This document shows, piece by piece, positions 1 through 30,315 of a stretch of DNA of 31,855 nt. Source of the stretch: Polyangiaceae bacterium (lineage in GTDB: Bacteria; Myxococcota_A; Polyangia; Polyangiales; Polyangiaceae); the NCBI GenBank assembly GCA_033763455.1, contig JANRKO010000021.1, forward strand, positions 1 to 31,855, in the 5' to 3' direction. A program made the position numbers and the translations under genes. A model generated the notes under the pieces. It made no database searches and was not told the origin of the DNA. It saw only the letters and a list, made by a program, of their open reading frames with translations. How positions within the stretch are numbered: the stretch's first letter is position 1; every line of letters starts with the position of its first letter.

Positions 1-1
1 G

Positions 2-244
2 GCCTGCGTCGGCGCACTCTACAAATGGCTGAATCGCCGCTCCCAGAAGCGGTCTTTCACCTGGGAACGTTTTGAAAAGCGTTTGCAATTCAATCCACTA
101 CCCATCCCACCATTTGGCCAAGACCTGCGCGATGTTTCCTCTGAACGCAATTCCAATAAACACAAACCGAAGAGCCGGATGCGGGAAATTCGCAAGTCCG
201 GTTCTGTAAGGAGCACCGGGTGGCAACACCCGGTGTTTACTTGA
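2..244 (+). CDS. ltrA: Group II intron reverse transcriptase/maturase, C-terminal 80 aa (5'-truncated by the window edge; not in the ORF track)
   Basis: Manual translation of frame 2: [37 protein letters not shown]...[31 protein letters not shown]...W..F....PLP is the domain X end typical of endonuclease-less bacterial intron proteins. No stop until TGA 242-244. Confidence 0.88.
172..204 (+). ncRNA. Group II intron catalytic domain V
   Basis: GAGCCGGAT-GCGG-GAAAT-TCGC-AA-GTCCGGTTC: AGC catalytic triad at 173-175, 9-bp lower stem (172-180 with 196-204), 2-nt AA bulge (194-195), short upper stem with a GAAA-containing loop. Confidence 0.93.
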
Positions 245-245
245 T
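208..245 (+). ncRNA. Group II intron domain VI, branch point and 3' splice site
   Basis: AAG(208-210) pairs with CTT(240-242); A239 is bulged; GAGCACCGGGTG(211-222) pairs with CACCCGGTGTTT(227-238) around a GCAA GNRA tetraloop. The branch A is the 7th nt from the terminal AT (244-245). Confidence 0.9.
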
Positions 246-1647
246 GGCCACACCCACTCGCATTGAAATCGACACTCTGGGCGAAGTCCACGTTCCCGAC
301 GCACAGCTTTGGGGCGCGCAAACCCAACGCAGCCTCGAAAACTTCAAGATCTCCAAAGAGAAAATGCCCGAAGAGCTGATTCATGCGCTCGCATTGGTGA
401 AGAAGGCCTCGGCGCTCGTGAACATCGAGCTTAAAATGGTCGACGAAAAGATCGGGCACGCCATCGCGGCCGCCGCAGATGAGGTGTTAGCCGGAAAACA
501 TCCAAACGAATTCCCACTCGTGGTTTGGCAAACGGGTAGCGGCACGCAGAGCAACATGAATATGAATGAAGTGCTCGCCAATCGTGCCAGCGAAATCATG
601 GGCGGCGTGCGCGGTGAGAAGCGGCTCGTGCATCCGAACGACCACGTGAACCGCGGGCAATCTTCCAACGATGTTTTCCCGGCGGCCATGACTATGGCGT
701 GTGTTACCGCTGTACGCACGCGGGTGTTACCATCCCTGGGGCTGCTGAGTCAGGTATTGGCAGAGAAGGCTCAAGCGTTTGCAGACGTTGTAAAGATCGG
801 GCGCACGCACCTGATGGACGCCACGCCGCTCACCTTGGGGCAGGAAATGAGCGGCTGGGTGGCCCAATTGAACCATGGCAAAGCGCACGTGGAAGCTTGT
901 TTGCCGCACCTTTCGGAGCTGGCGCTGGGAGGCACGGCAGTCGGGACAGGGCTCAACGCCCATCCTAAATTCGCGGTGATGGTGGCCGAGAAGCTCAGCG
1001 AGCTCAGTGGCTTCCCGATTGTCACCGCGCCCAACAAGTTTGAATCGCTCGCGGCTCACGACGCCATTGTGTTCGCCCACGGGGCCCTCAAAACAGTTGC
1101 GGCATCTCTCATGAAGCTGGCTAACGACGTCCGCTGGTTAGCATCCGGTCCACGTTCGGGCATCGGCGAGCTCATCATTCCCGCCAACGAACCGGGCAGC
1201 TCCATCATGCCGGGCAAGGTGAACCCCACCCAGTCCGAAGCGCTCACCATGGCCTGCGCGCAGATCATGGGCAACGATGTTGCCATCAACATCGGGGGCG
1301 CAAGCGGCAACTTCGAGCTCAACGTCTTCAAGCCGGTGATTGTCCACAATTTCCTTCAGAGCGCGCGGTTAATTGCCGACGGCGCCGATAGCTTCCGCGA
1401 AAACTGTGCGGTGGGCATCGAGCCTGATCGCGCTCAGATCAAGGCGCACTTGGAGCGTTCTCTAATGCTAGTGACAGCTCTCAACCCCCACATCGGCTAC
1501 GACGCCGCGGCCAAAATCGCCAAAAAAGCCCACAAGGAAGGCACTACCTTGAAGCAAGCGGCGCTGGCACTCGGGCTCGTGAGCTCCGAGGACTTCGACC
1601 GCTGGGTGCGCCCAGAACACATGATCGGCACCCTGCAAGGAAGCTAA
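244..1647 (+). CDS. fumC: Class II fumarate hydratase (fumarase C)
   Basis: Signature [13 protein letters not shown], plus [24 protein letters not shown] and N-terminal TRIEIDTLG...WGAQTQRS. Start placed at ATG 244 (MATPTRIE) because the ORF-track start GTG 220 lies inside intron DVI. Confidence 0.97.
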
Positions 1648-2589: not shown

Positions 2590-2611
2590 TTATGATTGAC
2601 TTCAGTCGTAA
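2590..2611. promoter_or_regulatory. Candidate operator (imperfect inverted repeat) upstream of the DeoR-rhaD operon
   Basis: TTATGATTGA-CT-TCAGTCGTAA (8/10 match between arms) in an AT-rich patch containing TTGACT, 26 nt before ATG 2638. Confidence 0.45.
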
Positions 2612-2637
2612 TTATATGCACGGTGTCGCTCATAAGA

Positions 2638-3414
2638 ATGAAGGTTCCCTGGCACATCGTGGTGGCCCGCCGTGAGCGCCTAGCCCACATGCTGAGGGAG
2701 CATTCCTACCTCACGTTGGCGGAAGTGTGCGCCCGCCTGGGCGTAAGCGAAGCCACCGCCCGGCGTGACCTTGCGGCGCTCGAACAGGAACAAGCCATTA
2801 CTCGTACGCGCGGCGGCGCCATCTCCGAATACAACCGTAGGTTTCCCTCCTTTCGGGATCGCCTGGAGCTCGGAGCCGCCAGCAAAACGCGCATCGCTCT
2901 CGCCGCCTACGAAAAAATTGTTCCCGGCCAGATAATATGGCTGGATGGTGGCACCACTTGCTACGCGTTAGCCCAAGCGATAGCAGCTCGCCCCTTGGCT
3001 GAGCTCACGATTGTTACCAATAATCTTCCCGCGGCGGAGCTCCTGGCGGATCACGAGCCCATCGTAGTGCACCTGCTCGGTGGTCAGTATTTTAGGCGGA
3101 GCTCCATTCTGCTTGGCGGCCATGCAGTGGAAGCCGTGCGAGCGTGGCGTTTCAACCTAGCCTTTCTAGGGGCTGAGGGGGTCACCCGGGCCGGCCTTTG
3201 GAACTCGGTGAGTGATGTGGTGGCACTTCAGCACGCAGTGTTAGCAGCCGCTGAAGATGCAATTTTCTGTGTGGATGCTGAAAAGGTGGGGCGTGAAGCC
3301 GAAGCCTTCCTATTGCCGCTCGGCGAGGTTCGGCACCTGCTCACGGATGCATCTGCTGAGGTGCTCGCACACCACCAAGTAAAACTTTCGAAGAAGGTGC
3401 TGTTGGCGGCTTAA
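2638..3414 (+). CDS. DeoR/GlpR family transcriptional regulator (probable rhamnose-pathway regulator)
   Basis: HTH LGVSEATARRDLAALE...RTRGGA; sensor domain with K.RIA..A, LDGGTT, IVTNN, LLGG, AFLGAEGV. Start moved to ATG 2638. Confidence 0.92.
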   Translation: MKVPWHIVVARRERLAHMLREHSYLTLAEVCARLGVSEATARRDLAALEQEQAITRTRGGAISEYNRRFPSFRDRLELGAASKTRIALAAYEKIVPGQIIWLDGGTTCYALAQAIAARPLAELTIVTNNLPAAELLADHEPIVVHLLGGQYFRRSSILLGGHAVEAVRAWRFNLAFLGAEGVTRAGLWNSVSDVVALQHAVLAAAEDAIFCVDAEKVGREAEAFLLPLGEVRHLLTDASAEVLAHHQVKLSKKVLLAA

Positions 3415-3456
3415 CGCACGTCGCCTCAGTTTTTCAGGACAATTGGAGAAACGAAC

Positions 3457-5658
3457 ATGAGCCAAGATCCGAACGTTAAGAACAGCCCTCGCCCCTACCC
3501 CCGCTGGGACGAAGCGCACGCCGCTACGCTAGACCCCGTGCAGCGCTTGGTCTATCGCTCGAACCTCCTCGGCTCAGATCAGCGCGTCACGAATACCGGA
3601 GGTGGGAATACCTCCGCCAAGCTTCTTGGGAAGGACCCAATCTCGACCGAAGACGTCGAAGTGCTGTGGGTGAAGGGTTCAGGCGGGGACCTTCGCACTA
3701 CGAAGAAGGATGGCTTCGCTTCGCTCTATCAGAAGCGCGTGCTGGCCTTGCAGGATGTTTACGCACGCTTCGAGACACGTGGAGTAAAGAGCGAAGCCGA
3801 AGACAAGATGGTCGATATGTACAAACATTCGACCTTCAACCTAAATCCAAGAGCTGCCTCCATTGACACGCCGCTGCACTCATTTGTGCCGCGAAAACAC
3901 GTGGACCACATGCACCCGAATTCGGTGATTGCAGTTGCCGCGTGCAAAGACCGCGAAGTGCTCACTGAAAAGGTATTTGGTGGAGAGCTCCAGTACATGA
4001 ATTGGCTGCGCCCTGGCTTTGAGCTCGGGCTGGAGCTGCAGGAAATATGCAAAAAGAACCCCAAGGCCAAGGGCGCCATCATGGGGCAACACGGCGTTAT
4101 CAACTGGGCGGACGACGACCGAGCTTGCTACGAGCTTACCATTTCGCTTATAGAAAAAGCTGACGCGTATATCGCCGCGTGCGACAAGGGAGCGCAAACC
4201 TTCGGCGGAAAGAAGTTCGAATCCTTGCCCCAACCCAAGCGCGAAGCCGTTTTGGCGGAGGTGCTGCCGTTCATTCGTGGCCAGATCACCTTCAAAGGGC
4301 AACGCTTGATTGGCACCGTACAGCACGACGATACCATGTTGCGCTTCGTAAATTCGGCCGACGCTCCGCGCCTGGCAGATTTGGGCACGAGTTGCCCGGA
4401 TCACTTCCTGCGAACCAAAATCAAGCCACTCTACGTTAACTGGGACCCTGCCAAAGAAGACGTGGCGGCGCTCAAAGAGAAGCTTACGAGCGGGCTTGAG
4501 GCATACCGCGAGGGATACAAAGCCTACTACGAACGCTGCCGGCGCCCGGGGTCCCCCGCCATGCGCAACCCCAATCCATCGGTCGTGCTGATTCCGGGAT
4601 GTGGCATGATCGCCTGGGGCAAAACGAAGTCTGAAAGCCGCGTTACGGCTGAATTCTACAACTGCGCAGTCGAAGTGATGCGCGGAGCGGAAGCCATCAG
4701 CGAATACGTGGCCTTACCCGAGCAAGAGGCTTTCGATATCGAATACTGGGCACTCGAAGAAGCGAAACTCCAGCGCATGCCGCCAGAAGAAGAGCTTTCA
4801 CGCCAAGTGGTAGCCGTGATTGGCGCGGGCAATGGGATCGGCAAGCAAGTTGCTATCCGACTCATGAAAGAAGGCGCGACGGTGGCATGCATTGATCGAG
4901 ATCTAGAGGCCGCCAAGGCGACGGCAAAGGAGCTGGAAGCCATCTATGGCGTCGGTATTGGCGTCGCCGGAACGGGCGTATCCGGAGTCGGGCCGGTGCT
5001 TGGGCTTGCCGCGGACATCACCGAACGGGAGAGCATTCGCGCTGCACTGCAGGATGTGGTGTTAGCCTACGGTGGCGCTGATACTGTGATCGTAACGGCA
5101 GGGATCTTCGTTTCCCCCGACAAAACAGGACACATCACGGACGACAAGTGGGGCCTCACCTACGCCATCAATGTGATTGGTCCATATTTGGTGGCCGACG
5201 TTGCGGCTGGGATTTGGAAAGCCCAAGGCACCCCTGGCAACTTCGTGATCACCACCTCGGTGAATGCGGCCGTGGCCAAAAAAGGCAGCCTTGCCTACGA
5301 CACGTCGAAAGCCGCAGCCAATCACCTGGTGCGTGAGCTTGCCGTTGAACTCGCACCGCTCGTGCGGGTAAACGCCGTGGCTCCGGCGACCGTCGTCAAA
5401 GGCAGCACCATGTTCCCTCGCGATCGGGTGATATCATCGCTCGTGAAGTACAATATCTCGCACAACGAAGCAGAATCCACCGAAGCTCTGCGTGAAAAGC
5501 TCGCTCAGTTCTATGCCGATCGCACGCTCTTGAAGCAGCCCATCACCCCCGAAGATCAGGCGGAAGCCGTATTTCTGTTGGTTTCCAACCGTTTACCGCG
5601 AACCACCGGCCAGGTTATCAACGTGGACGGAGGCTTGGTGGACGCGTTCCTACGATAA
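3457..5658 (+). CDS. rhaD: Bifunctional rhamnulose-1-phosphate aldolase / short-chain dehydrogenase (RhaEW/YuxG type)
   Basis: N-terminal class II aldolase (YRSNLLGSD, GGGNTSAK, WVKGSGGD, HVDHMHP, CPDHFLRTK, EAFDIEYWALEEAKL) fused to an SDR domain (GAGNGIG, YDTSK, VRVNAVAP, NVDGG). GGAG RBS. Confidence 0.93.
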   Translation: MSQDPNVKNSPRPYPRWDEAHAATLDPVQRLVYRSNLLGSDQRVTNTGGGNTSAKLLGKDPISTEDVEVLWVKGSGGDLRTTKKDGFASLYQKRVLALQDVYARFETRGVKSEAEDKMVDMYKHSTFNLNPRAASIDTPLHSFVPRKHVDHMHPNSVIAVAACKDREVLTEKVFGGELQYMNWLRPGFELGLELQEICKKNPKAKGAIMGQHGVINWADDDRACYELTISLIEKADAYIAACDKGAQTFGGKKFESLPQPKREAVLAEVLPFIRGQITFKGQRLIGTVQHDDTMLRFVNSADAPRLADLGTSCPDHFLRTKIKPLYVNWDPAKEDVAALKEKLTSGLEAYREGYKAYYERCRRPGSPAMRNPNPSVVLIPGCGMIAWGKTKSESRVTAEFYNCAVEVMRGAEAISEYVALPEQEAFDIEYWALEEAKLQRMPPEEELSRQVVAVIGAGNGIGKQVAIRLMKEGATVACIDRDLEAAKATAKELEAIYGVGIGVAGTGVSGVGPVLGLAADITERESIRAALQDVVLAYGGADTVIVTAGIFVSPDKTGHITDDKWGLTYAINVIGPYLVADVAAGIWKAQGTPGNFVITTSVNAAVAKKGSLAYDTSKAAANHLVRELAVELAPLVRVNAVAPATVVKGSTMFPRDRVISSLVKYNISHNEAESTEALREKLAQFYADRTLLKQPITPEDQAEAVFLLVSNRLPRTTGQVINVDGGLVDAFLR

Positions 5659-5697: not shown

Positions 5698-6771
5698 CTA
5701 CAGGCGAGATAGAAAGACGCCTATCTCGTTCAGAGGAGAACTTCGGCTTACCGCTTTGGCACGTACCGCGGAGCCGGGCATACCGTAGACTACTGCTGTC
5801 GACTCACTCTCGGCGATTACAATCCCCCCCTTGGCGAGGATCGCCTGGGCACCAGCTGTTCCGTCGTCCCCCATCCCAGTGAGGATGACGCCCACCGCCC
5901 GATTACCAGCAACATTCGCTACACTCGTGAAGAGCTTGTCGGCACTTGGCACGTAGCGGTCCCCTTCATCGGGCGTGGATACCCTAATTCTAAGATGCCC
6001 ACCCGGCGCCATTTCGAGTTGCATGCAACGCCGACCTGGGCACACAAAACCCGCTGCTTGAGCGATAGTATCCCCGTCTTGAGCCTCACTCACAGCCACG
6101 GCGCTTCGTCGATCCAGACGCTCGGCAAAGGTGCGAGTGAACTTGTCGGGCATGTGTTGAGCGACAAGGAAGGTGTTCTTCGAGGTCGCCGGTAGCTGCG
6201 CGAAAATGTCCATGAGTGCGGTGGGTCCGCCGGTAGAAGACCCGATGGCCACCACAAATCGTGGCGGTGGGCCCGGTACTGTTCGAGCGGGCTTAGCGCC
6301 AGCGCCTGTGAGTAACTCCTGTTCCCACACACGTGCGCGCAACATTTGGTTGGGGCGCACGCTGCGGGCTAGCAACACCTTCTTTAACAGATCTGCACGA
6401 ATCCCAGCAAAATCCGCGTCTGCTCTGCGATCAGGTTTGGTAACAAAATCCAACGCACCCAGCTCTAGCGCTTTGAATACGTTTTCCTTCTGGCTGTAGC
6501 TTGAGACCACCACCACGGGAGTCGGCATCTTGCTCATCAAAATGCGAAGGAAGGTGAAGCCGTCCATCTTGGGCATCTCGAGATCCAACGTGATGACGTC
6601 TGGAAGCAGCTGAAGTACCTGGCGAATCGCTTCTTCACCGTCGCTCGCCTTGCCCACGACCTCAATTCCCGGGGCCGCAGCCAAGATCTCGGAAATGTTC
6701 CGGCGGTTGAAAGCGGAATCATCCACGATCAAGACCCGCAAAGGTTTCTCTGTGAGGCTGGTTACGGTCAT
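5698..6771 (-). CDS. cheB: Chemotaxis response regulator protein-glutamate methylesterase
   Basis: REC domain (VDDS, TLDLEMPKMDG, KP) plus methylesterase triad motifs GSSTGGP, QHMP, LTGMGDDG. ATG 6771 overlaps the cheR stop (TAATG). Confidence 0.96.
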   Translation of the reverse strand: MTVTSLTEKPLRVLIVDDSAFNRRNISEILAAAPGIEVVGKASDGEEAIRQVLQLLPDVITLDLEMPKMDGFTFLRILMSKMPTPVVVVSSYSQKENVFKALELGALDFVTKPDRRADADFAGIRADLLKKVLLARSVRPNQMLRARVWEQELLTGAGAKPARTVPGPPPRFVVAIGSSTGGPTALMDIFAQLPATSKNTFLVAQHMPDKFTRTFAERLDRRSAVAVSEAQDGDTIAQAAGFVCPGRRCMQLEMAPGGHLRIRVSTPDEGDRYVPSADKLFTSVANVAGNRAVGVILTGMGDDGTAGAQAILAKGGIVIAESESTAVVYGMPGSAVRAKAVSRSSPLNEIGVFLSRL

Positions 6772-7658
6772 TATCGATCCCAACGCTGGGCTGCCAGCGG
6801 CTTTCTGTACACCAGGTCGTCGGTTAGGTGCACTAGTTCAAACGCAGTAGACAAGTTCAGTAGGCTTTCCGAGTGCCCAAGGAGGAGATAGCCGCCTGGC
6901 ACCAGCCGTTCGTACAGGGCATCGATGACCCGACGACGAGAGTCGGTATCGAAGTAAATCAGGACGTTTCTGCAGAAAACGACGTCCACTCGACCCACCA
7001 TTGAGGCCTTCGCTGGATCAAGCAGATTCAGATTCCCGAACCAGGAGTTCCTCTTGATCCGTTCCTTCACCTCCCACATTCTCACACCAGTACTCGGTCG
7101 TTCGTCAAAAAAAACTGCACGCTGCTGGGGAGTTGTGACCCGAAGCGAACTTTCCCGGTAGAGCCCGCGGCGGGCGTGCGCGACGCTCTTCTTGGACAAG
7201 TCCGTCCCAACCACGCGCACGGACCAATCCTTAAAAAGCTCCGTTTGCTCGATGAGCATCGCAAGGGTGTAGACCTCCTCACCCGTGGAACAGCCAGCGC
7301 TCCACACGCGCAAACGCTTCTGACTAGCCAACGAAACGGCGAGCTCGGGAAGAATTTCTCGCTGAAACGCGGTGAGCTGGTACTCCTGGCGAAAGAAGTA
7401 TGTCTCTTTGGTCGTGATGAGTTCGAGTGCCGCCTCTAGCTCCTCGAACCCCGAGGGATGGTGGCGGAGGTGCTTGTAGTACTCGGAGAAACTGGAAAAG
7501 CCTAAATCATCCAGCCGTTCAGCGAGCCTGCGCTCAAACATGTAAAGAGAATCTTCCTCAAAGAACAACCCCGCGTGCTGATTCATGTGGTCTCGCAACA
7601 ACCGGAACTCGGCCGCCGTAAGGCTGGGGTGGTCGCGAAAGATCCCTCGGGTTGTCAT
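6771..7658 (-). CDS. cheR: Chemotaxis protein-glutamate O-methyltransferase
   Basis: TTKETYFFR, VWSAGCSTGEEVYTLA, GTDLS, FCRNVLIYFD, GGYLLLGHSESL. Confidence 0.96.
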   Translation of the reverse strand: MTTRGIFRDHPSLTAAEFRLLRDHMNQHAGLFFEEDSLYMFERRLAERLDDLGFSSFSEYYKHLRHHPSGFEELEAALELITTKETYFFRQEYQLTAFQREILPELAVSLASQKRLRVWSAGCSTGEEVYTLAMLIEQTELFKDWSVRVVGTDLSKKSVAHARRGLYRESSLRVTTPQQRAVFFDERPSTGVRMWEVKERIKRNSWFGNLNLLDPAKASMVGRVDVVFCRNVLIYFDTDSRRRVIDALYERLVPGGYLLLGHSESLLNLSTAFELVHLTDDLVYRKPLAAQRWDR

Positions 7659-9760
7659 GCGCGAGAGGGGTCCGTAGGAGGTGGTGATAAGCGAGGGGCA
7701 CGCGAACTCGGACGACCCTCCAGTTGGTTCAGGGTGCGCAACAAAGCGGCATGAACCTGCGAGTCTGGCTCCGAACGCAAGCGCTGTCGAATGACATCTG
7801 GATCCATCCCAGGAACGGCGGCTGCAAGATGTGCCGCAAAATCGCGAACTTCACGCAGAGGGTGTTCAAGACAAAACCGCACATGCGGTGCGGCCTGGGA
7901 CCCGAACTCTACGACTAGGGCCTCCAGCGCCAACTTCACAACATCGGGCGCGGAGTGTTCAAGCGCGTCAGCGAGCGCCTCTGAGCGAAACGGGCTCTTA
8001 AGACCGACGAGCGCTTCTATCGCCGTGAGCGCGCATAACGGTTCGGGCCGCGATAGCATGGAGCGAAGCACCTCAAGCGCGCGGCTGTCGTTGGTATTGC
8101 CCAAAGCTCGAATCGCCGGGATGAGTAGGCGATCTTCTTCGGTCTGTGCGATAAGAGAGATCAGGGGCAGAGCGCCCGGGGAGGAGCCGTTTTCAGCGCG
8201 CAGGCTGCCCAGGGCACCGAGCGCCGCCACCTGCACCTCGGGCTCCTCATCCGTAAGGGCGAGCGCTAATACCTCAACCGCGGAAGGTTCAGCGAGTGCC
8301 GCAAGTGCTTCTACGGCCAAACGTCGCATGGTCTTGTCGTCGGTAGCCAACAGTTGCTTCAGGTGAGCAATGTCGACATCCGGTTCGGTGTGGACCGGCT
8401 TGCCCAGTGTGGCAACGACGATCGGCCACGCCAAGGACTGAGGATCCGCGCTCAGTACGGCACGACGAGCGGACTCAGGGAAATTACTGGTTAGCTCCCC
8501 AAACGCTTGGACGGCCACCTTGCGCACGGAAGGCGGCACCTCTTGCCTCAACCACGGCAAAAGCGCGCTAATCATCGCCTCCCCGCCGTGTCGAGCAGCG
8601 GCAGTCAGGACCCAGCGAGCTTGGCGCGAGTCACCTTCACTCAGCAAACGCAACAACACCGCATCGACCTCGGCAAGGCTCCCATTCCTTGGTAGCCTCG
8701 CCAAGATCTCCAACAGACCGAACGCTTCCTCGACGTCAGCTTCTGGAATCACCCGTACTAACGCGAGCACGCCGAGCTCCCTGAGGGAAGCGAGTGCCGC
8801 CTCCGCCTCCGCCTCCATGTCTGCATCTCCTAAACGCGAAACAAGAATCTCGGCCGATCGTGGCGTTTTTTGCAGCCCGCAGAGGAAGACCGCGGATTTA
8901 CACCATACCAGGTCCTCCCCACGTGACGCCGCTTGGGCTTCGACAAGCTCCGTAGCACGAGGTGCTTTTGACAGCGCCGCTTCGACGGCTCTCTGCTGAT
9001 TCTCGCCACTTTTGCCGAGCGTTGCGAGCGCAATCAGTGCTTCTCGGAAAGCGGCACCTGGACCTCGGTTCAATTCGTCCACCAACATTGGAACGGCAAC
9101 CACATCTCCGGTGAGCCCCAACGCCAAAAGGGCGGTTGGACGAAGGATTGGATCTGAGAGCATACTCGCGATGTGTGGGACGGGCAGGGCAAGCTGGAGA
9201 GTGTTCAGCCCTCCAAGTGCCGCCAAACGAAGCATTGCGTGCGAGCTCCGAAGTGCTGCTTCAAGCAGGTGAAATGCCTCCTCTGGATCGACGGCCCCGA
9301 GCGCCGCAACAGCTTCAATCCCGGCCATTTGCACGTTCGGATCGACGTCAACCAAGAGCTGACTGAGCGGGAGGAAGGCCCGCGCCTCACCCGAACTACC
9401 TAGCACCTCAGCCGCTAACTTTTTTGCATCGGCATCGAACGCTCCGAGGCGCCTGCCTAGCTCATCGACAACGGACTCACCGTACACAGCCAACGCCTCA
9501 ACGGCGGCATTCCGCTGGCCAACGTGGTCGCTATCGGTGAAGGTAGCAAGTAAACTGGACATGACATCGGGAGCCGGGGAAAGAGCCTTGGCGATGCGAA
9601 CTGCCTCTTTCCGAACTCGCCAGTCAGAGTCCGCCATGCACTTCACGAGCAATGGCGCGCGCCCCTTTAGAGCCTCAGTAGCTAACTTCTCGACCCCGTG
9701 TCGACGCACCTCCGCGTCCGCGGACGTGAGTGCCAATTCGATCTCCTGCTCAGAACTCAC
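7655..9760 (-). CDS. HEAT/PBS-lyase-like repeat protein within the che operon
   Basis: Repeated D.D..VR..AV.AL units (DSDWRVRKEAV, GQRNAAVEALA, DVDPNVQMAGIEAVAALG, DEEPEVQVAALGALG). Coupled to both neighbours by 4-nt overlaps (GTGA, ATGA). Confidence 0.88.
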   Translation of the reverse strand: MSSEQEIELALTSADAEVRRHGVEKLATEALKGRAPLLVKCMADSDWRVRKEAVRIAKALSPAPDVMSSLLATFTDSDHVGQRNAAVEALAVYGESVVDELGRRLGAFDADAKKLAAEVLGSSGEARAFLPLSQLLVDVDPNVQMAGIEAVAALGAVDPEEAFHLLEAALRSSHAMLRLAALGGLNTLQLALPVPHIASMLSDPILRPTALLALGLTGDVVAVPMLVDELNRGPGAAFREALIALATLGKSGENQQRAVEAALSKAPRATELVEAQAASRGEDLVWCKSAVFLCGLQKTPRSAEILVSRLGDADMEAEAEAALASLRELGVLALVRVIPEADVEEAFGLLEILARLPRNGSLAEVDAVLLRLLSEGDSRQARWVLTAAARHGGEAMISALLPWLRQEVPPSVRKVAVQAFGELTSNFPESARRAVLSADPQSLAWPIVVATLGKPVHTEPDVDIAHLKQLLATDDKTMRRLAVEALAALAEPSAVEVLALALTDEEPEVQVAALGALGSLRAENGSSPGALPLISLIAQTEEDRLLIPAIRALGNTNDSRALEVLRSMLSRPEPLCALTAIEALVGLKSPFRSEALADALEHSAPDVVKLALEALVVEFGSQAAPHVRFCLEHPLREVRDFAAHLAAAVPGMDPDVIRQRLRSEPDSQVHAALLRTLNQLEGRPSSRAPRLSPPPTDPSRA

Positions 9761-10251
9761 GCGTGGCCTCCGTCCGCTTTCGAGCCTGCAAAAAGACCCG
9801 ACATAAGGCTCTCGAAAGAGTCCAAATCCAGCACAAAGATGAGCTTGCCCCCGTGCGCGGCAACGCCGGAAATTCCGCGCACTTCATCGCCAGGGCCGAA
9901 CTCGGGCGCGGGCCTGAGGACACCACCCTCAGTTCCGAACACCTCGGTGACCCTGTCCACCGCCAGCCCAACTGTCCGCCCCTGCACATCCACCAAGATC
10001 CACTTTGTTCTGAGTGCTGACGCAAGTTTGGGCATCCCCAAGCGCGCTCGCAGATCCACAACCGGAACGACATCGCCGCGGTGATCCGCCACACCGAGGA
10101 TCACGTCTGGTGCGTTAGGTACAGGCGTGGTCGGAAGCGCATTCACAATTTCCCGCACGGAACTGATGGGAACGGCGTATTCCACGTCACCGAGCGCAAA
10201 CCCAACTAAGCTGCGCTTTGGATCGGGTCGGTCTTTACTCGGTTGCCTCAA
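9757..10251 (-). CDS. cheW: Chemotaxis coupling protein CheW (second copy)
   Basis: F.LG..EYAVPISSVREIV, TPVPNAPDVILGV..HRGDVVPVVDLR.RLG, VGLAVDRVTEV. TTG start is uncertain. Confidence 0.92.
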   Translation of the reverse strand: MRQPSKDRPDPKRSLVGFALGDVEYAVPISSVREIVNALPTTPVPNAPDVILGVADHRGDVVPVVDLRARLGMPKLASALRTKWILVDVQGRTVGLAVDRVTEVFGTEGGVLRPAPEFGPGDEVRGISGVAAHGGKLIFVLDLDSFESLMSGLFAGSKADGGHA

Positions 10252-10252
10252 G

Positions 10253-10735
10253 TTATGCTCCTACGATGGACCCAAGATCGAGCAAGACAATGGCGTCGCT
10301 AGAAGGGCGGCCAATGCCCTGAACGTGTGCGGAAATTTCACCCCCTAACACCGAAGCAACAGGCTCAATTTCACTCGCACCCAGACGGATCACCTGGCGC
10401 ACTTCGTCGACGAGTAACCCCACAACCTCACCCGAAGCGGTTTCGCTCAAGAGAATTCGCGTTCGCTGAGAGCCTGAACCATCTCCCAAACGCAACCTCT
10501 GCCTCAAATCAATCACCGTAACGAGGAGGCCTCGAACGCTGCAGATACCCAGTACATCCGACGCCGCACGCGGCACATGCGTGATAGGTGGCGGACTGAC
10601 GATTTCGCGAATAGTCGTGAGCTCCACGGCATAGAGCTCACCAGCGAGTGTAAACGCAAGAAATTCTCGGATGGGCCCAACTTGAGCGGCTCGCCTCAGG
10701 TGCCCCCGACGCTCCACGCGTGTCAAATCAGCCAT
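10253..10735 (-). CDS. cheW: Chemotaxis coupling protein CheW (first copy)
   Basis: FLAFTLAGELYAV..IREIV, ITHVP...VLGI..VRG..VTVIDLR, VGLLVDEVRQV. Confidence 0.93.
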   Translation of the reverse strand: MADLTRVERRGHLRRAAQVGPIREFLAFTLAGELYAVELTTIREIVSPPPITHVPRAASDVLGICSVRGLLVTVIDLRQRLRLGDGSGSQRTRILLSETASGEVVGLLVDEVRQVIRLGASEIEPVASVLGGEISAHVQGIGRPSSDAIVLLDLGSIVGA

Positions 10736-12833
10736 GGGCTCGCATCCCCTTCTCGCGAGCGTTCTCGCCGCTCAACAAAACCTCTTCAATCAAAGCCGCC
10801 GGATCTAACACCAGGCCTACGCGCTGATCGCCGAGCTCTGTGGCCCCCGAGAAACCACGTACGTGCGCAAGACTCTTACCGAGCGGCTTGATAACGATAT
10901 CCTGCTGCCCAATCAGGTAGTCCACCAAAATTCCCATTCGCTTGGAGCCCACGCTGGCAACCACCACGAACTTTCTGGCACGCGGGTCCTGTTCCGGCAG
11001 GCAAAGAACCCGTGCCAAACGGCAAAGCGGAAGAGATTGACCACGCAGAGTCATCACCTCTCGCCCGTCCACGACGCGCACGCCCCTGCCGTCGAAAGAA
11101 AGCGCTTCAGAAACACTATTGAGCGGCATTGCGAAGATATCTTGGCCTACCTTGACCAAAAGGGCGCTCACGATGGCCAGGGTTATTGGCAACGTGATGG
11201 TCATCTTGGTGCCGATGCCAGGCTCACTTTGCACGTCAATGACACCGCCGAGATGGCTGATGTTGGTCTTCACCACATCCATCCCGACGCCACGACCGCT
11301 CACGTCATCGACAACTTCGCGCGTGCTGACACCGGGAAGGAAGATAAGGCCCAGAATCTCTTCGCGCGAAAGCTCCTCCCGTTCGTTCAGATTGATCTTG
11401 CCAAGCCGCAGCGCCTTCTGCAGCAACGCATTCTCATCAATTCCTCGACCATCGTCCTCGATCTCAATAACAACGTGGTTCCCCTTTTGAAACGCATTCA
11501 GCGCAATGGTGCCGGCGTTTGGTTTGCCAACACGTGCCCGCTCCGCAGCACTTTCGATACCATGATCGATGGAGTTTCGAATCATGTGCATGAGCGGATC
11601 GCTCAGCTCTTCGACGATCAGCTTATCGATTTCGGTCTCAGCGCCCGTGATGACGAATCGAATCTCTTTGTTGAGCTCACGCCCGATTTGCCGGACCACA
11701 CGCGAGAGACGTTCGAATACTTGGCCCAAGGGCACCATTCGCACTTCAAGAATGCCGTCCTGCATTTCAGTGAGGCGACGCTCGAAATTGCGGTGAACAC
11801 GTAGGAGCTCCGAGGCAAGCTGCGGTTGGCCATCCGTGCGCACACGGTCAGCCACTTTGGCCAGAACGCTCCGTACAATCGCCAACTCGCCGACGATATT
11901 CATCAGCCGGTCAAGCTTGCGAATATCAACGCGCACCGTCTGGGTAAGGCTGCGCAGTGAACGATCCGGCGACGCCAGCGCCATCTCGGCGTTTTCTTCG
12001 GGCACCCCAAGTGGCTTCGAAAGGGCTGGGAGGCTCACCTCGTGCCGCACAGACCGCCCTCGGGAAAGGGGCGAACCATGCAGATCGGCTTTCCGGGCAA
12101 CCTCCTCGACGATGACGTGCTCTGACGCGAGCGAGCCGATCAACATCGAAAGGTCATCGTGGGATGCCATCAACAAATCGAGCTCAATAGTCTCGATGCT
12201 GGAAGACTCACCCGTGGGCAAATACGTTATGATTTCCCCGTGTCGTTTGGCCCGCTCTTTGATCTCCTCAAGTGCCTTGTCGAGGGTTGCAAGATCGAAC
12301 TTAACGCGTAAGCGGTACAGCCGGAGGCCTTGTTCGAGGTTGGAGCGTAGCCGATGCTCCTCATATTCGGTCAGAACCGCCAACATGCCCGGGTCGAGCT
12401 CGTAGTCGGTGACCATCGCGGGCTCAGGCTCTTCGTGCCCAGCAAGCTGCGCCAAACGCTCCAATAGGTTCGTGAGGCCCTGCGGCGCAGCCTCACTCCC
12501 CCCACGTTCTGCCTCCAGGATCTTGCCAAAAACGTCGATCGAGCTGAATAGCAAATCCAGCACCGCGCGCGTAAGTTCCGCACGACCGAGACGCAGATCG
12601 TCCAGCAAATCCTCCAGGTGGTGGGCCAAGCTGCCCATGGCCGTGGCACCAAAAAGGCCAGCCAGCCCTTTTAGGGTATGCACAGCTCGGAAAACTTCGT
12701 TCACCAACGTCGGATCGGAATGGCCCCCGGTGAGGGATTCGTCGATCGCGAGCAAGTTCCTAGAATAGGTTTCTATAATCTCCTGGGCTTCGGAGAAGAA
12801 CTCGTCGCGTGCTTTGTCGATTGAATCCACCAT
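10728..12833 (-). CDS. cheA: Chemotaxis histidine kinase CheA
   Basis: Hpt domain (VFRAVHTLKGLAG), P2-like region, dimerisation domain (TVRVDIRKLDRLMNIVGEL), HATPase (HMIRNSIDHGIE, DDGRG, SGRGVGMDVVK) and C-terminal CheW-like P5. Confidence 0.97.
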   Translation of the reverse strand: MVDSIDKARDEFFSEAQEIIETYSRNLLAIDESLTGGHSDPTLVNEVFRAVHTLKGLAGLFGATAMGSLAHHLEDLLDDLRLGRAELTRAVLDLLFSSIDVFGKILEAERGGSEAAPQGLTNLLERLAQLAGHEEPEPAMVTDYELDPGMLAVLTEYEEHRLRSNLEQGLRLYRLRVKFDLATLDKALEEIKERAKRHGEIITYLPTGESSSIETIELDLLMASHDDLSMLIGSLASEHVIVEEVARKADLHGSPLSRGRSVRHEVSLPALSKPLGVPEENAEMALASPDRSLRSLTQTVRVDIRKLDRLMNIVGELAIVRSVLAKVADRVRTDGQPQLASELLRVHRNFERRLTEMQDGILEVRMVPLGQVFERLSRVVRQIGRELNKEIRFVITGAETEIDKLIVEELSDPLMHMIRNSIDHGIESAAERARVGKPNAGTIALNAFQKGNHVVIEIEDDGRGIDENALLQKALRLGKINLNEREELSREEILGLIFLPGVSTREVVDDVSGRGVGMDVVKTNISHLGGVIDVQSEPGIGTKMTITLPITLAIVSALLVKVGQDIFAMPLNSVSEALSFDGRGVRVVDGREVMTLRGQSLPLCRLARVLCLPEQDPRARKFVVVASVGSKRMGILVDYLIGQQDIVIKPLGKSLAHVRGFSGATELGDQRVGLVLDPAALIEEVLLSGENAREKGMRAHG

Positions 12834-27152: not shown

Positions 27153-28889
27153 ATGAGTCTCAACAGGTCCCGACTTCGAGCCGTTCCGCTTGCGTTCTCA
27201 GCCGCAGCCTACTGCGTTACCGGCTGCACGACTGAGGGGGGAGGCCGCGACGGTAGAGGAAGTGAGCCCGCAAACCAGGCTTCAGGCAACGCGAATGGCA
27301 ACCCCAACACCGTCCCGGGTGCAGGTGGCACCGGCGGCTCTACCGGCGGCAATGGCAACACCGGCGGCAGTCCTGTGTCCCTCCCACCGAGCGGGCCATT
27401 GGGTCCAATTGCGGTGCGGAGGCTAAGCACACCCGAGTACCAGAGGTCTGTGGAAGCCCTTCCCAATCTGAATGCGGGTGCTTCGGTCACCAGCGGGTTC
27501 CTGAGCGATGACGAAGTCCTCGGCTACCATAACATGACCTCGGCCTTGCGCGTCCCTCTGGCCGTGGCAGAGCAATACGCTGTCGCTGCCAAGCAGCTTG
27601 GTCAGAAGGCCATGGCCGAAGCGCAAACACTTGCCCCCTGCAGTGGCGCCAGCGACGCCCAATGTGGTGAAGCCTTCATTCGTTCTTTCGGGCAAAGCGC
27701 CTATCGGCGCCCCCTGGCAGAAAGCGAAGTGGCTTCGTATGTCCAATTATTTAGTGCAGAGGTGACCCGCACCTCCTACGCAGGCGGCATTGGTCTCGTA
27801 GTAGAGACCATGCTGCAGTCTCCATATTTCTTGTACAAGACCGAGGTAGGTGCTGGCACCGGCCCGAGCCGCGAACTTACGCCCCACGAAATCGCCTCTC
27901 AAATTTCCTACGCCATCGCAGGCGAGCCACCGGATGAGCAACTTTACGCGGCGGCAGCGTCCGGGAGCCTTGCCACCACGGCGGGGCGTGTAGCTGAAGC
28001 TAGGCGTTTCTTGGCACGCCCCAATTCCACCGCTTGGATACGGGGGTTCGTGCTCGATTGGCTGGGGATCTCAAACGCTGCAAAAGCGGTAAAGGACGGA
28101 GCATTGTTTCCATCGTTCTCCACTGGCCTTCAGGCCTCGATGGTCGAAGAATCGCATCGCTTCGTGGATACTCTTCTCACCGAGCACAATGGCTCGTTGA
28201 GCACCCTCTTCACGGCAAACTGGTCGCCGCTGGACAGTGTCATGGCCAGCCACTACGGCGTGCCCGCACCGGGTTCGGCTTGGACGAGCGTCACCATGCC
28301 GCCTGCGCGGCTCGGCATCTTATCCCAGGCTGCTTTCCTTTCCGCGCATTCCAAACCTGATAGTTCGTACCCTATCGGTCGCGGGAAAACGCTAAGAATG
28401 CGGGTGCTCTGTGCACCGATGGCGCCGCCGCCGCCCAATATCCCGCCGTTCAATCCTCCCCCAGAAGCGACCACGACTCGCGAGAAACTCGCAGCACACT
28501 CGACCAACCCAACCTGCAACTCCTGCCACAGGCTGATCGATCCGCTCGGCCTTGGATTCGAGAATTTCGATGCGGTTGGCGCCTATCGTGACTCGGAAAA
28601 CGGGAGCCCCGTCGACACACAGGGCGCTATCGTCGACGTGGCGCCCGAGGTCGACGGGCCCTTCGCTACCCCCGCAGAATTCATCAACCGCGTGGCTCAA
28701 AGCCAGGTGCTCCGTTCCTGCATCTCACGGGAAATGCTGAGGTGGAGCTTGGGCAGGGAAGAGACGGCGGCCGACGGCGCGCTGATCTCCGCAATGGGCA
28801 ATCAGCTCATGGCTGCAAACTTGGATATTCGAGAACTAATCGTGGGGCTGGTGCAAGCGGAATCCTACCCCTTCCGTTCGGACATGTGA
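27153..28889 (+). CDS. DUF1592/DUF1588-type (PSD/PSCyt3) probable lipoprotein with one CxxCH motif
   Basis: Lipobox-like VTGC, Gly-rich linker, RRLS..EY, AYRRPL, LQSPYFLYK.E, EIASQISY...PPDEQL, RLGIL, PIGRG...R..LC...PPPP, TTRE...H...CNSCH..IDPLG.GFENFDAVG.YR. Confidence 0.9.
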   Translation: MSLNRSRLRAVPLAFSAAAYCVTGCTTEGGGRDGRGSEPANQASGNANGNPNTVPGAGGTGGSTGGNGNTGGSPVSLPPSGPLGPIAVRRLSTPEYQRSVEALPNLNAGASVTSGFLSDDEVLGYHNMTSALRVPLAVAEQYAVAAKQLGQKAMAEAQTLAPCSGASDAQCGEAFIRSFGQSAYRRPLAESEVASYVQLFSAEVTRTSYAGGIGLVVETMLQSPYFLYKTEVGAGTGPSRELTPHEIASQISYAIAGEPPDEQLYAAAASGSLATTAGRVAEARRFLARPNSTAWIRGFVLDWLGISNAAKAVKDGALFPSFSTGLQASMVEESHRFVDTLLTEHNGSLSTLFTANWSPLDSVMASHYGVPAPGSAWTSVTMPPARLGILSQAAFLSAHSKPDSSYPIGRGKTLRMRVLCAPMAPPPPNIPPFNPPPEATTTREKLAAHSTNPTCNSCHRLIDPLGLGFENFDAVGAYRDSENGSPVDTQGAIVDVAPEVDGPFATPAEFINRVAQSQVLRSCISREMLRWSLGREETAADGALISAMGNQLMAANLDIRELIVGLVQAESYPFRSDM

Positions 28890-28920
28890 TCGGGCTCGCG
28901 CTCGAAAGGAACAGTTTCAG

Positions 28921-30315
28921 ATGATTTCTCGACACATTTTGAAGCGCAGAGAACTTTTGATGGGACTCGGCAGCGCGGGCTTTTTGGCAGCGCCGATCTT
29001 CCGCGACAGCTTGCTGGAAGCTCAGCAGCAAACCCAACCAATTCGGTTCGTGGTTTTGCACGTGGCCGGCGGCATCTACTTCCCCTCCCAAGGTGAGGGC
29101 GTCGGTGGGTGGACGTTTGACAAGGTTCTTCGCTCATTGCAGCCCCTTCAGTCCGAGTGCATTCGTTACTTGGGTTTCAACAACCTGGCAGGCCAGAACG
29201 CCGGCAGCATGAGCAACGAGCAGCACGGCGCAGCGATGCGGACCGTTTTGACAGGCGACTCCACTGTTTGGAAAGACGGCCTCGCTCAGTGGTCGCCCAC
29301 TAATAGCATCGACCAGCAGATTGCCGATCGCATTAGCGTGGGCTTAAAGTTCCCCTCGCTACAGTTCGGCGTTCTGCCCATCAACGCCGTTATTGACCAG
29401 CGTCGGATAGCGATTCGAAACCAAAGTGCATTGCCACCCGTAGAAGAACCAGCGACGATGTTTGCGCGCTTGTTTGGTGACGCAGTTCCAGTGCCCACTC
29501 CTGTTCCCACGTCTACGGGAACAGGCACCGCGCCCTCAATTCCACCGCCGGTACCCACCACCTCGGACAGCAGTCGCCAGAAGAGCATGCTGGATCACCT
29601 ACTCGCCGAGGTCGCTACACTCAAGTCAGTTGCTGGAACGCGCGAACAGCAGAAGCTAGAGGAGCACCTGGAGTCGCTTCGGCAACTGGAGATGCGAATT
29701 CAGTCCAACCCTTCCGCAGGAACAGGCGGTTCTCAAGGTGGAGATCCTCCAGTGGTCATTCCGCCGCAAGTGGGCACCGGCTGCGCAGCGCCATCGCTGG
29801 TATCTGGCAATGACATTCCCGCAATTACGGCGAACCAGCTCGACCTGCTCTATCAGTCGCTAGTCTGCGATATGACTCGAGTCGCAAGCGTGCAGTTCTT
29901 GTGTTCGGCTCAGGTGGGCGTGAGCTTCCCCCATGTTGGCGTAAGTGATGCACACCATACCTTGGAGCACAACTTCAACCCGGACCTCGACAAGGTGGGG
30001 ACTTGGTTCGTCGACCAGATCGCAGCCTTCGCCGCTCGACTGAAAGCTACACCCGAAGGCAACAGCAACATGCTCGACAACAGCCTGCTTGTGATTTGCT
30101 CCGAATTCGGCAACGGTGGCGACCACAATCACTCTTTCATACCATTCGTCACGGTGGGCCGAGCAGGTGGCAAAGTCAGACCGGGTCGGGACATCGTGGA
30201 GGAAGAGGCGGCGCACAACCTACTGCTCCGCGGGCTCATGCAGCCATTCGGAATCAACTCGCCGAGCATTGGCGATGCCGACAAGAATAGCGGCACGGTA
30301 CCGTCGCTCGCGTAG
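28921..30315 (+). CDS. DUF1552 (HXXSHH) family protein with Tat-type signal
   Basis: KRRELLMGLG, SIDQQIA, P...F.RLFG, KSMLD, KLEEHLES.RQLE.RI, CDMTRVAS, HHTLEH, MLDNSL....SEFG...H, GRAGG. Directly follows the DUF1592 gene, the usual arrangement. Confidence 0.9.
   Translation: MISRHILKRRELLMGLGSAGFLAAPIFRDSLLEAQQQTQPIRFVVLHVAGGIYFPSQGEGVGGWTFDKVLRSLQPLQSECIRYLGFNNLAGQNAGSMSNEQHGAAMRTVLTGDSTVWKDGLAQWSPTNSIDQQIADRISVGLKFPSLQFGVLPINAVIDQRRIAIRNQSALPPVEEPATMFARLFGDAVPVPTPVPTSTGTGTAPSIPPPVPTTSDSSRQKSMLDHLLAEVATLKSVAGTREQQKLEEHLESLRQLEMRIQSNPSAGTGGSQGGDPPVVIPPQVGTGCAAPSLVSGNDIPAITANQLDLLYQSLVCDMTRVASVQFLCSAQVGVSFPHVGVSDAHHTLEHNFNPDLDKVGTWFVDQIAAFAARLKATPEGNSNMLDNSLLVICSEFGNGGDHNHSFIPFVTVGRAGGKVRPGRDIVEEEAAHNLLLRGLMQPFGINSPSIGDADKNSGTVPSLA

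Follow-up and report, generated by a model that had tools for sequence, protein, structure and literature searches.

The window analysed here is a whole contig of 31,855 bases, the first of which already lies inside a group II intron. On the forward strand, the contig opens with the tail of an open reading frame (ORF) for a reverse transcriptase (RT)/maturase, cut at its 5′ side and comprising the last 80 codons (2–241) and a TGA stop at 242–244 (2..244 in all). Its frame crosses domain V (172–205, +; GAGCCGGATGCGGGAAATTCGCAAGTCCGGTTCT), a catalytic hairpin whose loop has 5 nt (GAAAU) and whose bulge has 2 nt, and domain VI (207–243, +), a 16-bp hairpin with an unpaired branch-point A at position 239, both recognized by Rfam and by folding. 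The 3′ splice site follows at 245..246 (+), T245 being the last intron base and G246 the first exon base. An intact gene for class II fumarate hydratase, fumC (244..1647, +, 467 codons), opens at A244-T245-G246, and the RT stop and the fumC start share one base in the motif TGATG (242..246, +). Positions 1–245 of the window are thus the 3′ end of a compact, endonuclease-less group II intron of ~1.9 kb (the full length of this copy is extrapolated), placed between the second and third bases of the fumC start codon. Because the contig begins within the intron, the 5′ exon of this copy is out of view.

A search with the Rfam models, as proposed in the original prediction, returned Intron_gpII (RF00029) at 170–245 (+). 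It scored 54.1 bits, the gathering score being 40 (E = 3.8e-08). The match spans model positions 1–77 of 77, end to end, and is the sole Rfam match in the 31,855 bases. The minimum-free-energy fold of 100–275 contains the same two hairpins (z-score −3.0, with 1 of 200 shuffles folding as well). The marks of a group II intron found in the window are the AU end at 245, A239 at −7 and the hairpins of domains V and VI; the intron end reads ...ACTTGAT(245), that is, T241 T242 G243 A244 T245, followed by G246. Domain V is invariant in an alignment with five relatives (L001, L002, L004, L005 and L018), in 18 of 20 relatives the Rfam match likewise stops at this AT (L010 and L016 have no Intron_gpII match), and similarity of the window to its relatives ceases after G246. 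Match and fold agree with what had been read from the sequence before: intact domains V and VI, a bulged A239 and an intron end at 245.

The assignment of the fumC start also stood, in that the terminal AT of the intron and G246 open a complete ORF at the position where homologues start, and the unspliced DNA keeps this ORF intact (244–1647 open). The ORF matches FumaraseC_C and Lyase_1, the latter at E = 2.8e-111 with profile position 1 falling on residue 13. Its junction ATG lies 21 codons ahead of the conserved LWGAQTQR, a distance that is mostly 19–23 among the 120 homologues listed, and P0002, the closest fumC homologue among the matches listed (89% identity), has its M at exactly the same position. 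The database gene call on the contig instead starts fumC at GTG 220, inside domain VI (P0001, 475 aa), a start without support from homologue N termini. An AGGAG on the 5′ strand of domain VI was rejected as a linear Shine–Dalgarno (SD) sequence for fumC, being ~30 nt away from the ATG and base-paired with UUUACUU of the branch strand.

The RT tail has 200 homologues, of which the full-length ones measure 474–484 aa, with 60–88% identity over all 80 residues, and 118 of the 120 RT homologues listed share the same ...xT C terminus. The final ~50 residues come from domains V and VI. YADD is present in the RT, and RVT_1 alone, with no endonuclease domain, was found in all three RTs scanned.

A lineage of introns at start codons

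Relatives of this intron, here called type A, were compared at 22 3′ junctions (window included) and 14 5′ junctions, all from contigs of metagenome-assembled genomes (MAGs), in which mis-joined repeats are possible. The 3′ junction reads T(G/A)AT↓G (the arrow marks the splice site) in 20 of the 22 copies of the RT clade, counts that do not represent independent events because the intron sequences are related; the insertion sites are independent. The exceptions, L006 (AT↓C) and L009 (AT↓A), both still have TGAT, so the AT belongs to the intron. At the other side, the 5′ exon ends in AT in 12 of 14 relatives, in GT in one and in CG in one, followed by an intron that begins with GTGCG. As the first intron base is G and the last two are AU, each junction carries an AUG, and joining the exons would give back the native one; the ligated exons would read ATG or GTG in 13 of 14 relatives. 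We infer that the window's own 5′ exon likewise ends in AT.

Since G follows AT in all but two of the 22 junctions, the border cannot be placed by similarity alone, and an intron ending two bases earlier (...ACTTG↓ATG) would insert just before start codons, the whole ATG being exon. We consider this highly improbable: L006 and L009 retain TGAT before C or A, the AT-ending 5′ exons in 12 of 14 relatives would be an unexplained duplication, the Rfam consensus AY aligns to A244–T245 with the branch A at −7, and the AUG of exon-binding site 1 (EBS1) pairs with CAU of the exon. A single junction could also be a coincidence, roughly one in four following bases being G, in which case an intergenic intron would merely abut fumC. 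This is practically negligible given that the pattern recurs in 20 of 22 family junctions and that 14 of 19 open real genes at native N termini.

These figures come from tabulating the insertion sites of close RT homologues, as had been suggested. The junction ATG opens an ORF of at least 98 aa in 14 of 19 evaluable cases and only 12–48 codons in the other five (L007, L008, L010, L016 and L044). Pfam families were found in 11 of 13 relatives' downstream ORFs, starting at residues 4–41 in nine and at residues 58 and 110 in two. The host-gene domains include PFK, IS3-type HTH_Tnp_1, AAA_14 with DUF4143 (twice), globin, YceI, NUDIX, M16 peptidase, RNase_T with helicase, and a hybrid histidine kinase.

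In a quick tree search, 17 type A RTs formed one clade (SH-aLRT 100), carried by MAGs labelled Myxococcota, Bdellovibrionota and others. The Rfam D1D4-6 type, which we take to be bacterial class F, matches 16 of 20 relatives at 63–111 bits, starting 35–95 nt from the 5′ end; the other four are without domain I, as is the window. The relatives measure 1780–1962 nt, with 440–515 nt for domains I–III (5′ end to RT start). The comparison shows type A to be, as far as related sequences can tell, a monophyletic lineage of compact, endonuclease-less introns at AT↓G of many unrelated genes. The original prediction of start-codon insertion as a self-neutralising strategy of an endonuclease-less intron is thereby borne out at the level of the lineage, by 20 of 22 3′ junctions and 12 of 14 5′ junctions.

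In a plasmid collection, blastn with window positions 1–245 gave only domain V-sized matches, and tblastn with P0121 gave nothing above 42% identity. Two plasmid matches were rejected as family members: one from Halomonas, in which a separate ltrA ends before domain V and an IS21 istA adjoins, and one from Sinorhizobium, in which the RT is split.

The window copy might be a 5′-truncated or internally deleted remnant that no longer splices and supplies the ATG of fumC, which would then be expressed by read-through and coupling or from a new promoter. The contig does begin inside the RT ORF, and derivatives occur at start codons: L018 is an internally deleted copy of 719 nt, and in L046 similarity to the intron begins at position 1313. 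We nevertheless find a remnant distinctly improbable. The 80 visible RT codons are intact, with 80–88% identity to full-length homologues; a contig break in a multi-copy repeat would be the usual cause of such an end; and most contigs with RT homologues are ~2 kb, the size of the intron.

Target recognition

EBS1 is predicted in a domain I loop reading (G/U)UAUGN, in which 5′-AUGN pairs with (N)CAU at the end of the 5′ exon. Read by eye, exon position −4 pairs with the N of EBS1 in 8 of 11 cases (four G:C and four U:A). In L009, the exon ends in GUCG and the EBS1 loop has CGAC, and these changes account for three of only six unique substitutions in this copy. The predicted EBS1–IBS1 pairing in type A introns is thus ~4 bp. 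No EBS2–IBS2 signal emerged over shuffled intron–exon pairings, 14–43% of shuffles being as good in this small set (n = 11), and a search for EBS3 found no column in which L009 (+1 = A) differs complementarily from all others.

The original prediction had the 5′ exon consist of a ribosome-binding site followed by AT. In the relatives the AT held up and the SD sequence did not: the core GGAG/GAGG/AGGA was absent at −16 to −4 from all 13 target sites. Targeting through an upstream hairpin, as in group IIC introns, was rejected on the folds of 11 5′ exons, which have no hairpin at a common position and DNA-fold z-scores of −2.1 to +1.06, with one below −2. The target sites also show TA at −12/−11 relative to the A of the ATG (6 of 13) and T at −7 (6 of the 11 sites first tabulated). 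Together, these have the geometry of a −10 promoter box with a transcript starting at the AUG.

Open frames through the ribozyme

The RT stop lies at −4 to −2 in all 22 copies (13 TGA and 9 TAA) and overlaps the junction. Indels in domain VI are all multiples of 3 across the 22 copies, and the distance from the 3′ strand of domain V to the intron end is 38, 41, 44 or 47 nt in 22 relatives, always 2 modulo 3.

A second frame, ORF1, runs from the ATG at the 5′ junction to the RT start and is open in 12 of 14 full-length introns (147–172 codons; broken in L005 and L009); ORF1 of the window's copy is extrapolated. It ends in TAATG in seven copies, in a TAA 5 nt before the RT ATG in three, and in a TGA ~40 nt inside the RT ORF in two. 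The other two frames over the same 438 nt contain 2–10 stops, and the ORF1 frame is stop-free in 0–1.7% of 2000 dinucleotide shuffles per sequence. In L011 and L012, 259 of 449 aligned columns are in another phase and ORF1 is still open, and the deleted copy L018 is open in one frame all the way from AT↓G to TGAT↓G. The RNA that encodes ORF1 also contains 102 predicted pairs, 58 of them with compensatory changes, a pattern of covariation that shows it to be a conserved putative ribozyme.

At least 287 database proteins match ORF1, some annotated 'hypothetical protein', and 86 of the 120 listed begin with M-C-A/V at the junction. ORF1 was nonetheless rejected as a real protein family, and we read it as an open path rather than a protein, since a Pfam scan gave no match in the three ORF1s scanned and the sequence is unconserved where the phase shifts.

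A proposed translational relay

We think it probable that start-codon introns of the type A lineage are arranged as a translational relay, from which the host gene would be expressed whether or not splicing takes place. The initiation site of the host gene itself, completed by the first G of the intron, would start ORF1 across domains I–III; ORF1 would terminate at or beside the RT start, so that ribosomes pass to the RT ORF; and this ORF would cross domains IV, V and VI and stop at the U(G/A)A that overlaps the host AUG. Termination–reinitiation would hand the ribosomes on, finally to the host gene. Spliced mRNA and unspliced RNA could then each yield FumC of normal sequence, and RT synthesis would go through the start signal of the host gene. 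As the targets are without an SD core, an internal start at the 3′ junction would need such coupling. Ribosomes moving over domains I–III, V and VI would unfold the ribozyme, and translation and splicing would therefore have to alternate on one RNA. The open frames through the ribozyme could also serve some purpose other than a relay.

The main competing explanation is that FumC is made only after splicing and that the open frames are tolerated by-products, handing no ribosomes to fumC; in a variant, they serve only RT expression or avoidance of Rho-type polarity. Several observations fit it: joined exons would regain ATG or GTG in 13 of 14 relatives, the ribozyme shows good conservation with covariation, translation of domains V and VI conflicts with their folding, and upstream of the RT start there is GAGGAAG, an SD sequence of their own being normal for group II RT ORFs. 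It leaves unexplained, however, why all 22 copies have the RT stop one base ahead of the splice site, why domain VI indels are multiples of 3, why the deleted L018 retains one frame from ATG to TGATG, and why ORF1 stays open even across a phase change. We judge this explanation unlikely. The original prediction had suggested that fumarase expression could depend on splicing; this is not the likeliest reading, as stops that overlap starts point to expression from unspliced RNA too.

A more specific form of the relay, which we put forward tentatively and with some doubt, is that type A introns are parasites of leaderless (SD-less) start codons, the whole ribozyme being a translated relay. The 5′-terminal AU and the G of the intron would then be the only entry point for ribosomes; ORF1, RT and host gene would be translated one after another via TAATG and TGATG; and host expression would proceed without splicing, which would serve only mobility, from read-through transcripts.

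Bacterial group II introns are considered to keep out of housekeeping genes, since the coupling of transcription to translation disturbs splicing. The type A lineage appears to solve insertion into coding genes differently from the one published start/stop-codon clade: the start codon appears to be rebuilt at both junctions, with an uninterrupted path for ribosomes across a conserved ribozyme. If the relay is real, selection would act on one RNA both for its catalytic fold and for three linked reading frames at the same time, and a retroelement would use the start signal of its host for its own RT. There are also consequences for annotation. In the database, fumC of this contig begins at a GTG within domain VI, the proteins that match ORF1 are read-throughs of intron domains I–III, and contigs break at type A introns directly beside gene starts.

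Comparison with known group II introns

Group IIC introns target terminators or attC sites and need a stem-loop just upstream. Type A resembles them in being compact and endonuclease-less, with an EBS1–IBS1 pairing predicted to be very short and many sites reached through a generic genomic signal; in contrast, its target is the start codon, with no upstream stem-loop detectable in 11 5′ exons. In yeast mitochondrial introns of the aI1/aI2 type, the RT is an in-frame extension of the upstream exon, from which proteolysis frees it. These share with type A an open frame through domains I–III that is continuous with upstream translation and uses the host initiation site, whereas ORF1 of type A starts at the junction, lies in another frame than the RT and is linked to it by overlapping stop and start only.

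Introns of classes IIE and IIF, such as Ge.ur.I1 and Pe.th.I2, have a ribozyme of 450–700 nt without the ORF, a 5-nt domain V loop, a long domain VI and an endonuclease-less RT (PMC3753933), the RT being described as without a D/En region in PMC3552965. Type A has the same small size, 5-nt domain V loop, long domain VI and endonuclease-less RT. The RT has YADD, unlike the FADD of group g2 (PMC3552965). Type A differs in its predicted ~4-bp EBS1 pairing, compared with EBS1 pairings of at least 5 bp and an apparent EBS2 in classes E/F (PMC3753933, PMC3552965). Neither PMC3753933 nor PMC3552965 mentions start codons.

The published clade at start and stop codons belongs to IIB1 and includes Avi.groEL and EcKTE56.groEL (Michel et al. 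2007, as described in PMC12584367). According to PMC12584367, it has a CL1-type RT with an endonuclease domain and, in every member, a 300–700-nt subdomain Ia at the base of domain I. As in type A, insertion is between the second and third bases of a translation signal in a protein-coding gene, and the terminal bases rebuild the codon, UAA becoming UAG in that clade (PMC12584367) and AUG remaining AUG in type A. Tandem copies occur in both, in ~3% of reads in the IIB1 clade (PMC12584367) and in protein P0323 in type A. Unlike that clade, type A is of the D1D4-6 type, has RVT_1 only and is without the subdomain Ia insertion, as the length of its domains I–III indicates. The IIB1 clade homes to one gene, groEL, through long EBS–IBS pairings (PMC12584367), whereas type A occupies many genes with its short EBS1. 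The parallel with the Azotobacter groEL intron drawn in the original prediction therefore applies to the start/stop-codon site and does not extend to a shared lineage, the groEL group being IIB1, with an endonuclease RT and a domain I insertion (PMC12584367). According to the authors of PMC12584367, it is unknown how such introns locate start or stop codons; a second, independent lineage with a 4-nt EBS1 thus offers a simpler system for study.

In PMC12584367 we found no report of an RT ORF through domains V and VI, or of an ORF1, for the IIB1 clade. Our literature search, which covered Michel et al. 2007 through PMC12584367, gave no account of class F-like or D1D4-6 introns at start codons, of an RT ORF that terminates with the 3′ splice site or, in bacteria, of an ORF across domains I–III. 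Within that reach, the features new to type A are the RT ORF through domains V and VI with its stop overlapping the host ATG, ORF1, the AUGN of EBS1 and the SD-less targets; Michel et al. 2007 or Simon et al. 2008 may describe part of them.

A further comparison is with a sister clade, type B (L019–L066), which is of the same Rfam type and also sits at gene starts. Type B has no long ORF1 (8–36 codons), and the position of its RT stop varies. It inserts one base after the start codon (SD-N6–7-ATG-R↓GTGCG) and carries its own GGAGG-N6–9-ATG TCT ACT CGA C within domain VI.

The fumC start codon lies at a group II intron junction

The window opens with the 3′ end of a group II intron, which takes up bases 1–245. 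The Rfam model Intron_gpII, the sole Rfam hit in the 31,855-base window, aligns along its whole length with positions 170–245 (54.1 bits, E = 3.8e-08; the gathering score is 40), and a fold of bases 100–275 places on the + strand domain V at 172–205, with a 2-nt bulge and a 5-nt loop, and domain VI, of 16 bp with a single unpaired A at 239. Match and fold thus agree with the original prediction of intact domains V and VI with a bulged A239, and the end of the match at 245 bears out the predicted intron end at T245. The terminus reads ...ACTTGAT(245), G246 is the first base beyond and fumC (+ strand, 467 codons; Lyase_1 E = 2.8e-111, FumaraseC_C) starts at ATG 244–246. This ATG is the native start, as predicted, because its distance to LWGAQTQR (21 residues) is typical of the 120 fumC homologues listed (mostly 19–23) and because the closest of these, the intron-less database protein P0002 (89%), has its M at the same position. 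The stored gene call P0001 (475 aa) places the fumC start of this contig at GTG 220, within domain VI, which we take to be an artefact; it adds MATPGVYL to the N-terminus, and bases 220–231 (GTGGCAACACCC) are by chance similar to the true start at 244–255 (ATGGCCACACCC). Two features were no part of the original prediction. An RT/maturase frame (2–241, + strand) crosses both domain V and domain VI without a stop and ends at a TGA (242–244) that overlaps the fumC ATG. The window is the entire contig, and the 5′ exon lies off it.

An ORF for a Uma2-family putative restriction endonuclease (1670–2488, +; PF05685 E = 4.2e-24) lies 22 nt past the fumC stop. A DeoR-family regulator (2596–3414, +) precedes a 733-aa class II aldolase and short-chain dehydrogenase fusion (3457–5658, +), which we take to resemble rhamnulose-1-phosphate aldolase/dehydrogenase fusions. 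Further genes include a chemotaxis cluster of CheB, CheR, a 700-aa HEAT-repeat protein, two CheW and CheA (5698–12833, −) and a pair with DUF1585/1587/1588/1592/1595 and DUF1552 domains (27153–30315, +), families first described from Planctomycetes. Among those listed, the closest fumC homologues and intron loci that bear a name carry the label Polyangiaceae.

Related introns occupy start codons

Using the 80-residue RT tail of the window as query, we found 200 proteins; full-length RT relatives were 474–484 aa long, with 60–88% identity across all 80 residues. The same C-terminus was present in 118 of the 120 relatives listed, so extension of the RT frame across domains V and VI is a family trait. 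An alignment of 50 relatives was then used to scan genome contigs, yielding 80 loci, of which the 21 closest plus the window formed a set of 22 3′ junctions. The sequence T(G/A)AT|G (bar, splice site) occurs at 20 of these; the exceptions, L006 (AT|C) and L009 (AT|A), both retain TGAT, indicating that AT is intron sequence. The Intron_gpII match terminates at that AT in 18 of 20 relatives scanned, with no match at the gathering threshold in L010 and L016, and the window's similarity to L001, L002, L004, L005 and L018 ends after G246.

Fourteen 5′ junctions were available, at which the exon ends in AT in 12, in GT in L002 (which would give a GTG start) and in CG in L009; in all but L009, exon ligation would restore ATG or GTG. 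The junction ATG opens 98 to 1007 codons in 14 of 19 evaluable cases and 12–48 codons in five. Pfam families were found in 11 of 13 scanned ORFs downstream of relatives' introns: in nine the family begins at residues 4–41, in one (M16 peptidase) at 58 and in one (nucleotidyltransferase) at 110. Besides these two, host genes include phosphofructokinase, an IS3-type transposase, two AAA_14/DUF4143 ATPases, globin, YceI, a hybrid histidine kinase, NUDIX NADH pyrophosphatase and RNase_T-helicase. Most tabulated insertion sites are therefore at gene starts, and the predicted insertion into a start codon emerges from this comparison as a habit of the lineage. The 5′ exon had been expected to end in a ribosome-binding site followed by AT: among relatives the AT stood, while the ribosome-binding site did not, an SD core being present at −16..−4 in 0 of 13 targets.

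Two copies depart from this pattern. A C rather than G follows the intron at L006:1857, and the downstream frame contains IIHRDLKPANILL, a protein-kinase catalytic-loop motif, which places this copy within a kinase gene; its 5′ exon lies off contig. The L009 intron (3031–4950) sits at GUCG|A with no start codon and has a broken ORF1 (the open frame described below), and CGAC replaces AUGC in EBS1, the intron loop that pairs with the end of the 5′ exon. A tmRNA gene (L009:5611–5971, − strand; Rfam 181.6 bits) lies ~660 nt downstream of it.

Target recognition

The EBS1 loop in domain I reads (G/U)UAUGN in 11 of 12 aligned introns. Its AUG pairs with exon CAU, a U at −3 or a G at −2 of the exon being accommodated by a G:U pair, and N pairs with −4 in 8 of 11 (four G:C, four U:A; alignment read by eye). 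In L009 the exon ends in GUCG, and three of only six alignment columns unique to this intron are its EBS1 changes. The nearly identical introns L011 and L012, from one MAG, have exons that agree only at −1, −2, −6 and −7. In P0002, D (GAY) precedes M, giving a Y at −3 that would, from the codon, fit EBS1. We found no EBS2 signal over shuffled pairings, no assignable EBS3 column in the alignment and no upstream hairpin at target sites. As EBS1 is the sole pairing detected, RNA pairing explains ~YAU|G, which is far too little to account for most sites being gene starts; the extra determinant may be protein contacts or selection after insertion. TA occurs at −14/−13, counted back from the splice site, in 6 of 13 targets, where a −10 box would lie if transcription began at the A of ATG; by a rough hand binomial with p set at about 0.07, such a count is unlikely even with 39 positions allowed for.

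Reading frames inside the ribozyme

The RT stop falls at −4..−2 in all 22 copies (13 TGA, 9 TAA), and domain V to the intron end measures 38, 41, 44 or 47 nt, a distance that is 2 mod 3 in every case. At the other end, ORF1, which runs from the 5′-junction AT|G across domains I–III to the RT start, is stop-free for 440–515 nt (147–172 codons) in 12 of 14 full-length introns, L005 and L009 being the exceptions and the L003 junction codon, lost at a contig end, being assumed. The other two frames hold 2–10 stops within the first 438 nt, and when each sequence was dinucleotide-shuffled 2000 times, only 0–1.7% of the shuffles lacked a stop in the ORF1 frame. ORF1 ends in TAATG overlapping the RT ATG (L002, L010–L015), in TAA 5 nt ahead of it (L004, L008, L017) or ~40 nt within the RT ORF (L003, L007).

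This stretch also folds as ribozyme (102 predicted pairs, compensatory changes in 58), and ORF1 has no Pfam match in the three copies tested. Relative to L004, 259 of 449 aligned columns of L011/L012 are in another phase with the ORF1 frame still open, which points to selection for an open frame and not for a protein. There are 287 database proteins matching ORF1; among the 120 listed, the N-terminus is M-C-A/V at the junction in 86 and is extended in 29, most of which have M before the C. One ORF1 homologue, P0323, starts MATPPVYLMCVTK, a domain VI end running into an intron 5′ end, a sequence that would imply two copies in tandem, head to tail. In a 719-nt internally deleted copy (L018:3380–4098), an ORF-less derivative in the start codon of the NUDIX NADH pyrophosphatase gene, L002-intron positions 1–106 are joined to 1358–1957, which fuses ORF1 in frame with the RT tail and leaves 239 codons open all the way from AT|G to TGAT|G.

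The sequences establish the position, lineage, EBS1 and frame architecture of these introns (type A, the RT clade including the window's intron), for which we propose a ribosome relay. Splicing would restore the native AUG. Without splicing, ribosomes would begin at the host's site, translate ORF1 and then reinitiate twice, first on the RT and next on the host ORF, so that the host gene would be expressed spliced or unspliced and the RT translated by way of the host's initiation signal. We infer this from sequence and, for the window, which holds the last 245 nt of its intron only, by extrapolation from relatives. Against a relay, translation and ribozyme folding compete for one RNA, ORF1 is broken in 2 of 14 introns and five junction ORFs are short.

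A sister clade reaches gene starts by another device

The sister RT clade (type B; 25 loci within L019–L066, for example L032:4857–4943 and L037:4858–4937) is of the same Rfam type. Its domain VI carries GGAGG-N6-9-ATG TCT ACT CGA C up to the splice site, and all 11 cases with sufficient sequence show GGAGG-N6-7-ATG-R|GTGCG at the 5′ exon, placing insertion one base past an SD-led start codon. There is no long ORF1 in type B (8–36 codons only), and the RT stop position is variable. Judging by these motifs, the gene-start association is wider than type A and uses another device in type B, whose unspliced RNA would yield host protein with MSTR/MSTH in place of M. One MAG contains six type B copies, each ahead of a different MKK-type signal-peptide gene. 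In a third RT clade (L052:4877–4982, L053:2577–2904), the RT frame crosses domains V and VI and stops only in the 3′ exon.

Comparison with known introns

Rfam group-II-D1D4-6, which we take to be class F, matches all relatives retaining domain I (16 of 20, the other four being without it), and intron length among relatives is 1780–1962 nt. The RTs carry YADD and, in 3 of 3 tested, RVT_1 only, consistent with the predicted endonuclease-less RT. A quick maximum-likelihood tree of 63 scan RTs unites all 17 type A RTs in one clade (SH-aLRT 100). Our literature search, which did not cover two key papers, found no introns of this lineage at start codons, no RT ORF whose end is a single base short of the 3′ splice site, no ORF across domains I–III and no SD-less targets. 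Insertion at start codons is known for one IIB1 clade (PMC12584367, citing Michel et al. 2007). That start/stop-codon clade has a CL1-type RT with an endonuclease domain and a 300–700-nt subdomain Ia, whereas the type A RTs tested have RVT_1 only and the introns match D1D4-6. According to PMC3753933, IIE/IIF introns are small, with a long domain VI and a 5-nt loop in domain V, traits that fit type A.
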